A stretch of DNA of 64,000 bases from Escherichia phage vB_EcoM_Shinka. Both the position numbers and the translations under genes were made by a program. The stretch's first letter is position 1. The number at the start of each line of letters is the position of its first letter. The notes beneath the pieces are model-generated. The model made no database searches. It was not told where the DNA came from and saw only the letters and a program-made list of their open reading frames with translations. Of the stretch, positions 33,851 to 34,678 are shown piece after piece. The stretch lies in the sequence record MZ502379.1, one strand, 5' to 3'.

Positions 33851-33926
33851 TGGTCGAGGCAGTAGGGATCGAACCTACGACCCAGGACTTAGAAGGTCCT
33901 TGCTCTTCCTTCTGAGCTATGCCTCG
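33851..33926 (-). tRNA. tRNA-Arg (anticodon UCU)
   Basis: Manual fold: acceptor cgaggca/tgcctcg, T-arm gtagg-gatcgaa-cctac, anticodon loop CUUCUAA; CCA encoded. Confidence 0.8.
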
Positions 33927-33930
33927 TATT

Positions 33931-34005
33931 TGGCGGACGTGATAGGATTCGAACCTATAACCAATCGCTTAACAGGCGATCGCTCTGCCATTGAGCTACA
34001 CATCC
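33931..34005 (-). tRNA. tRNA-Asn (anticodon GUU)
   Basis: Manual fold: GGATGTG acceptor, D-arm GCTC-AATGGCA-GAGC, anticodon loop CUGUUAA, T-arm ATAGG-TTCGAAT-CCTAT, CCA encoded. Confidence 0.75.
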
Positions 34006-34009
34006 AAAT

Positions 34010-34096
34010 TGGTGGGGAGTGATGGAGTCGAACCACCCGAGTCGCAATGACAATGGATTTACAGTCCACACCGCTACCTCTACGGGATAACTCCCC
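34010..34096 (-). tRNA. tRNA-Tyr (anticodon GUA), class II with long variable arm
   Basis: 87 nt; acceptor GGGGAGT, anticodon arm GTGGA-CUGUAAA-TCCAT, long variable hairpin, T-arm with TTCGACT loop, CCA encoded. Confidence 0.7.
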
Positions 34097-34105
34097 AAAT
34101 TAATT

Positions 34106-34180
34106 TGGTGGCCCTGGGTAGAATTGAACCACCATCTGGCGATTATGAGTCGCTTGCTTGAACCTTCCAGCTACAGGGCC
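34106..34180 (-). tRNA. tRNA with CAU anticodon (Ile2-type or Met)
   Basis: Acceptor ggccctg/cagggcc, anticodon loop CUCAUAA, T-loop TTCAATT; Ile versus Met cannot be decided from sequence alone. Confidence 0.7.
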
Positions 34181-34181
34181 T

Positions 34182-34257
34182 TGGTGCTGATTGACGGAAT
34201 CGAACCGCCGACGTCCTCATTACAAGTGAGGTGCTCTACCTACTGAGCTAAATCAGC
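34182..34257 (-). tRNA. tRNA-Thr (anticodon UGU)
   Basis: Acceptor gctgatt/aatcagc, anticodon stem cctca/tgagg with loop CUUGUAA, D-stem gctc/gagc. Confidence 0.8.
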
Positions 34258-34262
34258 AAAAC

Positions 34263-34352
34263 TGGCGGAGGCGATAGGATTTGAACCTATGAGTCGCCGG
34301 AGCGACTGCCGGTTTTCAAGACCGGTGCATTAAACCACTCTGCCACGCCTCC
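34263..34352 (-). tRNA. tRNA-Ser (anticodon UGA), class II
   Basis: 90 nt with long variable arm; anticodon stem ccggt/accgg, loop CUUGAAA; acceptor ggaggcg/cgcctcc. Confidence 0.8.
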
Positions 34353-34354
34353 AG

Positions 34355-34428
34355 TCTCCATACAAGGATTTGAACCTTGGACCTCCTGATCCCAAATCAG
34401 GCGCTCTACCAAACTGAGCTACACGGAG
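34355..34428 (-). tRNA. tRNA-Pro (anticodon UGG)
   Basis: Anticodon stem cctga/tcagg with loop UUUGGGA; D-arm GCTCAGTTTGGTAGAGC; CCA not encoded. Confidence 0.75.
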
Positions 34429-34438
34429 TAAATTAAAT

Positions 34439-34512
34439 TGGAGCGGATAATGAGAATCGAACTCACATCATCAGATTGGAAGTCTGAGGTAATACCATTA
34501 TACGATATCCGC
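34439..34512 (-). tRNA. tRNA-Gly (anticodon UCC)
   Basis: Acceptor gcggata/tatccgc, anticodon stem tcaga/tctga, loop CUUCCAA. Confidence 0.8.
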
Positions 34513-34517
34513 AAATT

Positions 34518-34604
34518 TGGTGCGAGAAGTGGGACTCGAACCCACAAGGAAATCATTCCGCAGCATTTTAAGTGCTGTGCCTTTACCAATTTGACCATTC
34601 TCGC
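34518..34604 (-). tRNA. tRNA-Leu (anticodon UAA), class II
   Basis: 87 nt; acceptor gcgagaa/ttctcgc, T-arm gtggg-actcgaa-cccac, anticodon loop CUUAAAA, long variable arm. Confidence 0.8.
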
Positions 34605-34605
34605 G

Positions 34606-34678
34606 CTGGGAATAAAGGACTCGAACCTTTGCATCCTGGAATCAAAATCCAGTGCCTTACCAACTTGGCTAATTCCCA
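34606..34678 (-). tRNA. tRNA-Gln (anticodon UUG)
   Basis: Acceptor tgggaat/attccca, anticodon stem ctgga/tccag with loop UUUUGAU; CCA not encoded. Confidence 0.75.

Follow-up and report, generated by a model that had tools for sequence, protein, structure and literature searches.

We analysed a cluster of transfer RNA (tRNA) genes in Escherichia phage vB_EcoM_Shinka (sequence record MZ502379.1), within a stretch of 64,000 nucleotides (nt) that is called the window here. ARAGORN, run across the whole window, found exactly ten tRNA genes, all on the minus strand and all between positions 33851 and 34678, with none outside this interval. In the order of transcription they are Gln(UUG), Leu(UAA), Gly(UCC), Pro(UGG), Ser(UGA), Thr(UGU), a gene with the anticodon CAU, Tyr(GUA), Asn(GUU) and Arg(UCU), arranged head to tail with spacers of 0-10 nt. 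Complete cloverleaves were drawn for all ten, and every locus passed the gathering score of the Rfam tRNA family RF00005. Nine of the genes reached 55-74 bits (E-values from 4e-9 to 2e-14), and tRNA-Tyr was marginal, with 30.2 bits against a threshold of 29. An earlier reading of this DNA made from the letters alone (the sequence-only reading) had proposed these ten genes with the same anticodons, order and coordinates, and had placed Tyr and Asn only a few nucleotides apart. ARAGORN and Rfam confirmed all of this, including the cloverleaves and anticodons of Tyr and Asn. The ten tRNA genes are real, far beyond chance.

The array begins with tRNA-Gln (34605..34678), which abuts tRNA-Leu (34518..34604) with a spacer of 0 nt. 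tRNA-Leu and tRNA-Gly (34439..34512) are 100% identical to the genes of T2, T4 and T6, and tRNA-Pro (34354..34428) to those of T2 and T4. tRNA-Ser (34263..34352) is 100% identical to that of T2 and contains a weaker site for the endonuclease SegB (PMC2330249), while tRNA-Thr (34182..34257) matches T4 at 75/76 positions and is replaced in T2 by an open reading frame (ORF). The distal part consists of the CAU gene (34106..34180), tRNA-Tyr (34010..34096), tRNA-Asn (33931..34005) and tRNA-Arg (33851..33926). In the ARAGORN drawings Leu, Ser and Tyr have the long variable arms of class II tRNAs, and Ser (62.6 bits) and Leu (59.3 bits) also fall in the lower part of the Rfam range. The drawing of tRNA-Tyr has a variable stem of 3 base pairs (bp) and one mismatch in the D stem. 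Gln and Pro have no encoded CCA, so CCA addition by the host would be needed. For Tyr and Asn we also looked for covariation by aligning relatives found in other phages, in a phage-plasmid and in E. coli. The consensus fold was a cloverleaf in both cases, with compensatory changes at 11 of the 24 pairs of tRNA-Tyr (seven sequences) and at 12 of the 22 pairs of tRNA-Asn (four sequences).

The region is 97-99% identical to many genomes of the genus Tequatrovirus (T4-like phages), the top match being vB_EcoM_NBG2 (98.6%), and the same ten tRNAs are annotated in several close Tequatrovirus genomes, such as GiZh and NBG2. A homologue of trna.2 lies upstream of the array (phrog_2023, 95 amino acids, identified by blastn to T4), and the genes neighbouring the array are 94-99% identical to those of T4. 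Directly after tRNA-Arg, on the same strand, comes a homologue of rnaD, the species 2 stable RNA (33729..33846; 103/120 identical to T4 rnaD), and then one of rnaC, the species 1 stable RNA (33584..33722; 137/139 identical to T4 rnaC), which is annotated as rnaC in phage GiZh. Since the array is located between trna.2 and rnaD/rnaC, it is the classical T-even tRNA operon at its customary position. Judging from T4 biology, it would be transcribed as a polycistronic precursor from which host tRNA-processing enzymes would excise the tRNAs.

The arrays of the T-even phages differ in gene content. T4 has eight genes in the order Gln, Leu, Gly, Pro, Ser, Thr, Ile, segB, Arg, not counting segB, and the sequence-only reading was right that an ORF separates Ile from Arg in T4; according to the T4 annotation this ORF is segB, a gene for a GIY-YIG homing endonuclease. 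T2 has nine tRNA genes (Gln, Leu, Gly, Pro, Ser, an ORF, CAU, Tyr, Asn, Arg) and T6 has seven (Gln, Leu, Gly, Thr, CAU, Tyr, segB, Arg), so that segB stands between Arg and either the CAU gene (T4) or the Tyr gene (T6). Some relatives have eleven, with tRNA-His after Asn, with or without an endonuclease gene. Aligned gene by gene, Leu, Gly, Pro, Ser, Asn and Arg of the window are 100% identical to T2, and the block CAU-Tyr-Asn-Arg matches T2 at 74/75, 86/87, 75/75 and 76/76 positions, i.e. 98.7-100%. The CAU and Arg genes are T2-type alleles, 63% identical to tRNA-Ile of T4 and to tRNA-Arg of T4 and T6, respectively. In blastn alignments homology to T4 breaks inside tRNA genes, at 33896/33897 and 34160/34161. 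Tyr and Asn lie wholly within the segment with no T4 counterpart (33897..34160), together with 55 nt from the 3' end of the CAU gene and 30 nt from the 5' end of Arg, and T4 has in place of this segment most of Ile, segB and the 5' part of Arg. Because the breaks lie inside the CAU and Arg genes, what sets the window apart from T4 is a replaced block and not a spacer exchanged for two genes, as the sequence-only reading had it. No remnants of Tyr or Asn were found by blastn in the Ile-segB-Arg interval of T4, where homology stops at window position 33896 and resumes at 34161.

An array of this type has been described before. The tRNA regions of T2L, RB1 and RB3, sequenced in 2008, are without segB and have tRNA-Met(CAU), Tyr, Asn and Arg (Brok-Volchanskaya et al., PMC2330249). 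Petrov et al. (2010, PMC2993671) counted eight tRNAs in T4, nine in T2, seven in T6 and ten each in RB3, RB14, RB18, RB26 and LZ2, and their list gives eight for two T4 entries and for RB32. In the phage collection that we searched, the Tyr-Asn segment is present at 80% coverage or more in 435 phage records. The distribution of the whole array was sampled as evenly spaced rows from the 833 records matching it, and an uninterrupted copy of 828-832 bp was present in about one seventh of the sampled rows, corresponding to roughly a hundred genomes. Thus, Tyr and Asn are indeed outside the T4 set, but they are not unusual, and the ten-gene array is an ordinary, long-published version of the operon. 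Our main reading, with a probability of about 0.9, is that the window belongs to a Tequatrovirus and that its array is the complete T-even tRNA operon of the T2L/RB1/RB3 type, without an inserted homing endonuclease.

Several observations concern relatives of this array. An eleventh gene, tRNA-His, lies between Asn and Arg in many close relatives (about 190 bp more; e.g. OR062527.1, positions 1122-2137 of the examined stretch), and some of these carry, between His and Arg, an endonuclease gene as well. In the Dhakavirus IME08 a three-gene array, CAU-Asn-Arg without Tyr, directly follows trna.2 (151-383 of the examined stretch), and its alleles are near those of the window (90% for CAU; 83% over the stretch from rnaD to Asn, including Arg). 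Of 5426 complete E. coli genomes, 269 have plasmids with a tRNA-Tyr 94.3% identical to that of the window. In the 109-kilobase (kb) plasmid pEC881_2 (NZ_CP019027.1) this gene adjoins genes for tRNA-Asn, Thr and Ser (2921-3747 of the examined stretch); a DNA ligase, a glutaredoxin and an integrase are encoded there too, and the plasmid is therefore probably a phage-plasmid. The E. coli matches to the phage tRNA-Tyr were confined to plasmids, with no chromosomal match by blastn even at E <= 10, and a recent capture of the gene from the E. coli chromosome was rejected on this ground. Finally, rV5-like phages of about 136 kb (e.g. MT884008 and MN850578) share tRNA segments that are about 89% identical (the Tyr-to-Pro part, query positions 156-580) and are annotated there as Tyr, Thr, Met and Pro. 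The occurrence of these segments in an unrelated group suggests transfer of multi-tRNA blocks between phage families.

The preferred 27-bp site of SegB lies within T2L's gene for tRNA-Asn, and in T4 x T2L crosses the homing of segB erases about 1250 bp encoding the Met(CAU), Tyr, Asn and Arg tRNAs (PMC2330249). In the window the corresponding 27-mer, GGTTCGAATCCTATCACGTCCGCCAAA (33955-33929, minus strand), which takes in the T arm and the 3' end of tRNA-Asn and 2 nt more, is intact and starts at the T-arm motif. It differs from the window Ser sequence exactly at positions 6, 16, 18, 26 and 27, and it has all five diagnostic bases named for the T2L site (G6, A16, G18, A26 and A27; PMC2330249). 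We predict that the window tRNA-Asn carries a preferred SegB cleavage site. No SegB homologue was found in the 64-kb window by tblastn with T4 SegB, which gave a noise match only (E = 2). As the window is without segB, amplification driven by segB, as described for T6, cannot take place in cis here. If a phage carrying segB infected the same cell, the window block would act as recipient and undergo conversion.

What might keep Tyr and Asn in such arrays is suggested by recent work on defence systems that cleave tRNAs. Septu cuts the variable arm of tRNA-Tyr, and the extra tRNA-Tyr of T6 rescues this phage, whereas T4, which has no tRNA-Tyr, cannot escape and T2 is resistant; the T6 tRNA-Tyr was detected on northern blots and is experimentally functional (Chihara et al. 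2026, PMC13096335). Likewise, tRNA-Tyr of the T5 family rescues from retron-Eco7, with promoter strength being important (Azam et al. 2024, PMC11555353). In the same paper tRNA-Asn gave no rescue from PrrC170, and a defence specific for tRNA-Asn was not found there. AriB, the nuclease of PARIS, cuts between positions 40 and 41, adjoining a UAAU motif, and a change at U39 abolishes cleavage of the principal PARIS target, tRNA-Lys; AriB also targets Asn(GUU) and Thr(UGU), with tRNA-Asn as a secondary target (PMC12409363). The window tRNA-Tyr is only 2 nt away from that of T6 (85/87), with the same D arm and an identical variable arm. This arm differs from that of the host, yet the identical arm of T6 is still cut by Septu. 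At the AriB site the window tRNA-Asn reads U36-A-A-G39-C40/G41 where the host has UAAUC/C, and tRNA-Thr reads UAAU-G40/A where the host has UAAUC/A (the slash marks the cut). These differences from the host at AriB-relevant positions are suggestive.

Tyr would replenish the pools cut by Septu and by PtuAB of retron-Eco7, and Asn and Thr would replenish those cut by AriB. A tentative idea, in our view rather unlikely as a whole, is that the presence or absence of Tyr-Asn reflects SegB homing, which would erase the genes, against tRNA-cleaving defences, which would retain them, with Asn (G39, G41) and Thr (G40) resistant to AriB and Tyr serving as a dosage back-up against PtuAB. If this were true, phages with ten tRNAs would be intrinsically hardier than T4 on hosts with Septu, retron-Eco7 and, in part, PARIS, and the tRNA-His of sister arrays would point to a further defence that cleaves His tRNA.

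A competing reading is that Tyr and Asn serve only to supply translation, meeting the raised need of an AT-rich genome for Tyr and Asn codons while host tRNA synthesis is off, with no role against defences. Codon usage was compared between 79 ORFs of the window (18,016 codons) and 42 genes of E. coli K-12 (14,748 codons); the sequence-only reading had proposed a comparison of this kind between late genes and host. The codons read by the eight tRNAs of the T4 set (CAA, TTA, GGA, CCA, TCA, ACA, ATA and AGA) are enriched 1.6- to 9.7-fold, and these tRNAs would serve codons far commoner in the AT-rich phage than in E. coli. Among the amino acids, enrichment is strongest for Tyr (1.75-fold), Lys (1.66-fold) and Asn (1.62-fold); of all codons, AAT shows the greatest absolute excess (+31.6 per 1000), and TAT ranks fourth (+21.4 per 1000). 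In E. coli the Tyr and the Asn codon box each have only one isoacceptor, which makes a supply role plausible: the Tyr and Asn tRNAs, as sole decoders of their boxes, would add to the supply. The identity of their anticodon loops with those of the host fits this as well. However, the T6 tRNA-Tyr decides the outcome of infection on Septu hosts, and the anticodon stems of Asn and Thr differ from the host right around the AriB cut. Moreover, Lys is equally enriched and yet no tRNA-Lys is encoded, and tRNA-His, an extra gene in sister arrays, serves the amino acid that is most depleted in the window ORFs (0.62-fold), so that codon supply is no obvious explanation for that gene. The tRNAs for Tyr, Asn and His all have G34 anticodons (the queuosine family). 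Supply as the only function is therefore possible, but on balance doubtful.

The CAU gene could encode either a tRNA-Ile of the lysidine type (tRNA-Ile2) or a tRNA-Met, a choice that the sequence-only reading had left open. In favour of an elongator tRNA-Met is the anticodon CAT, with the label given by ARAGORN and by many GenBank records; the gene is annotated as tRNA-Met in NBG2, T2, T6 and IME08, and the T2L paper says tRNA-Met in places (PMC2330249). Furthermore, unmodified tRNA-Ile(CAU) is charged with Met (PMC1635315). On the other side, 5423 of 5426 E. coli genomes have as best match to this gene one that is annotated as tRNA-Ile. A fetched example of this E. coli tRNA-Ile is 80.3% identical and shares the anticodon arm (AGCGACTCATAATCGCC) and nearly all of the acceptor stem, against 62% identity to E. 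coli metT. The acceptor stem in the ARAGORN structure, GGCCCUG/CAGGGCC, has C4-G69 and C5-G68, the pairs that E. coli TilS requires (PMC1635315) and the identity elements that the sequence-only reading had asked to be inspected. Initiator features are absent, the gene having G1-C72, and C11-G24/U12-A23 instead of A11-U24/G12-C23. ATA is enriched 5.5-fold in the window ORFs and ATG is under-used (0.78-fold), and the gene occupies the position of T4 tRNA-Ile and is annotated as Ile in GiZh. We predict with good confidence that it is tRNA-Ile2 and not Met, and regard the elongator tRNA-Met as quite improbable. Host TilS would modify the tRNA to lysidine, and it would then read AUA.

As for the direction of change, the sequence-only reading took Tyr and Asn for unusual additions to the T4 set, replacing the ORF spacer between otherwise equivalent Ile and Arg genes. 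T4 does have eight tRNAs with an ORF at that place, and Tyr homologues 85-95% identical in unrelated phages (T5, rV5-like phages, Felixounavirus) and in phage-plasmids speak for horizontal movement. However, the ORF is segB, which has been shown to invade at tRNA-Asn and to erase Met, Tyr, Asn and Arg, and the flanking CAU and Arg genes are not equivalent to those of T4 but different alleles. Moreover, the Tyr-Asn block is widespread, five ten-tRNA genomes of the T-even type having been tabulated against two T4 entries and RB32, and CAU-Asn-Arg of the same allele type (83-90%) exists in another genus, in IME08. Since SegB invades at Asn and converts the flanks, and given this distribution, parsimony indicates that the endonuclease-free array is probably the older one and the eight-gene layout of T4 derived from it, i.e. 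the reverse of the direction first assumed. Insertion of Tyr and Asn into a T4-like array is thus very improbable. T6 appears as a hybrid, with a T4-type CAU gene, a T2-type Tyr gene, segB and a T4-type Arg gene. The marginal Rfam score and the D-stem mismatch of tRNA-Tyr might point to a gene in decay or without function, but this is hardly credible, because the gene is 94-99% conserved in T2, T6 and phage-plasmids, shows compensatory changes across phage families, shares the low score range with the class II Ser and Leu and has in T6 a near-identical counterpart that is expressed and rescues infection.

It must be taken into account that several points weigh against the account given here. 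The derived state of T4 is an argument of parsimony only, and the history may be more complicated, as the T4-type CAU gene beside a T2-type Tyr gene in T6 marks the region as a mosaic. The role in defence is drawn by analogy. Anticodon-loop escape mutations in Tyr and Asn were considered and rejected, both loops (CUGUAAA and CUGUUAA) being equal to those of the host, so these genes are not loop-mutant escape variants; and since Septu also cuts the T6 tRNA-Tyr, any benefit would come from dosage and not from resistance. T4 is reported to be sensitive to PARIS unless it is given the T5 tRNA-Lys (PMC12409363), and tRNA-Lys, the main target, is absent from the array. The host sample used for codon usage was small, with 42 genes. 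We claim no promoter upstream of tRNA-Gln, since sigma-70 promoter matches there (7) were no commoner than shuffled sequence would give (6.6 expected). For this phage we infer expression, processing, modification and aminoacylation of the tRNAs.

A further candidate signal just upstream of tRNA-Gln, a MotA-box-like TGCTT with AATAAT seen by eye, was dropped because the implied start site would lie inside the tRNA. At the other end of the locus, a strong intrinsic-terminator-like hairpin of ten pairs followed by a T run (33510..33533, minus strand) is annotated as a terminator at the same place in GiZh and NBG2, and it is likely the end of the transcription unit for the tRNAs and stable RNAs. 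At its 3' end (33584-33610) rnaC has a perfect T arm like that of a tRNA (GGTTCGAATCC; GGTTCGAATCCCGG...), and this arm matches the 11-bp core of SegB's recognition consensus, GGTTCRANTCC. Just downstream of rnaC, on the minus strand, is an ORF of 157 amino acids (32986-33459; phrog_2280, unknown function, no Pfam match). Pfam gave no matches for the neighbouring ORFs in general, and PHROGs gave only families of unknown function. NBG2 has the 157-amino-acid ORF, and T4, T2 and T6 have nothing at its position. The region that contains it (32981-33501) lies between two near-identical terminator hairpins, 33533-33510 and 32978-32955 (AGCCCCGACCGAAAGGTTGGGGCT and AGCCCCGACCAAAAGGTTGGGGCT), and one T4 stretch of about 35 bp aligns to both of its ends. 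The ORF with its terminator looks like an inserted cassette.

The tRNA-Gln gene has nine differences from those of T2, T4 and T6, all within the anticodon arm and with pairing maintained. Its loop is UUUUGAU, as in E. coli glnU, and that of T4 is CUUUGAC. Both alleles are common: the window allele is present at 99% identity or more in 290 phage records, and about 235 records, including T4 and T2, fall in the 80-90% band.

The new content of this analysis is limited to refinements of annotation, namely the label Ile2 instead of Met, where the predicted SegB site lies and how far the block replaced in T4 extends, and to a tentative suggestion drawn from the differences at the AriB site. For annotation, the phage can be described as a T2/RB3-type Tequatrovirus with no segB homologue in the 64-kb window, and the CAU gene, labelled tRNA-Met in many records, should be labelled tRNA-Ile2. 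The Asn gene marks the predicted cut point for SegB of a co-infecting phage. Carriage of tRNA-Tyr may predict better plating on Septu and retron-Eco7 hosts, as for T2 compared with T4, which would bear on host range and phage therapy.

Among known systems, T5 has the same isoacceptors Tyr(GUA), Asn(GUU) and Thr(UGU), and its tRNA-Tyr has the variable arm and T arm of the window gene and about 85% identity over 91 nt. Unlike the window phage, however, T5 belongs to a different phage family and has about 24 tRNAs, among them tRNA-Lys(UUU), which the window array does not have. T6 shares with the window a nearly identical tRNA-Tyr whose variable arm is the region cleaved by Septu, but its array of seven tRNAs is without Pro, Ser and Asn, has segB directly after Tyr, and contains CAU and Arg genes of the T4 type.

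In T4 the array is likewise located between trna.2 and e.8, with rnaD and rnaC following it. The first six genes are much the same (Leu, Gly and Pro 100%, Thr 75/76, Ser 88/90), and the difference lies in the distal part, where T4 has no Tyr or Asn, has the 666-bp segB and has the divergent Ile(CAU) and Arg(UCU) alleles. The 3' end of tRNA-Ser (window 34263-34265) is an encoded CCA in the window and in T2 and TAA in T4, so that in T4, unlike in the window, the CCA of this tRNA is added after transcription. T2 is closer in the distal block, but it has nine tRNAs, an ORF at the position of the window's Thr and a further ORF after Arg, a different anticodon-arm allele of tRNA-Gln, and no cassette with the 157-amino-acid ORF downstream of rnaC. 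The closest likeness is to T2L, RB1 and RB3 (GenBank AJ880101; RB3, NC_025419), in which segB is absent and the distal block of CAU (named Met), Tyr, Asn and Arg consists of the same alleles. T2L has the same preferred SegB site in tRNA-Asn, and RB3, listed with ten tRNAs, has a Tyr-Asn segment 99.4% identical to that of the window.

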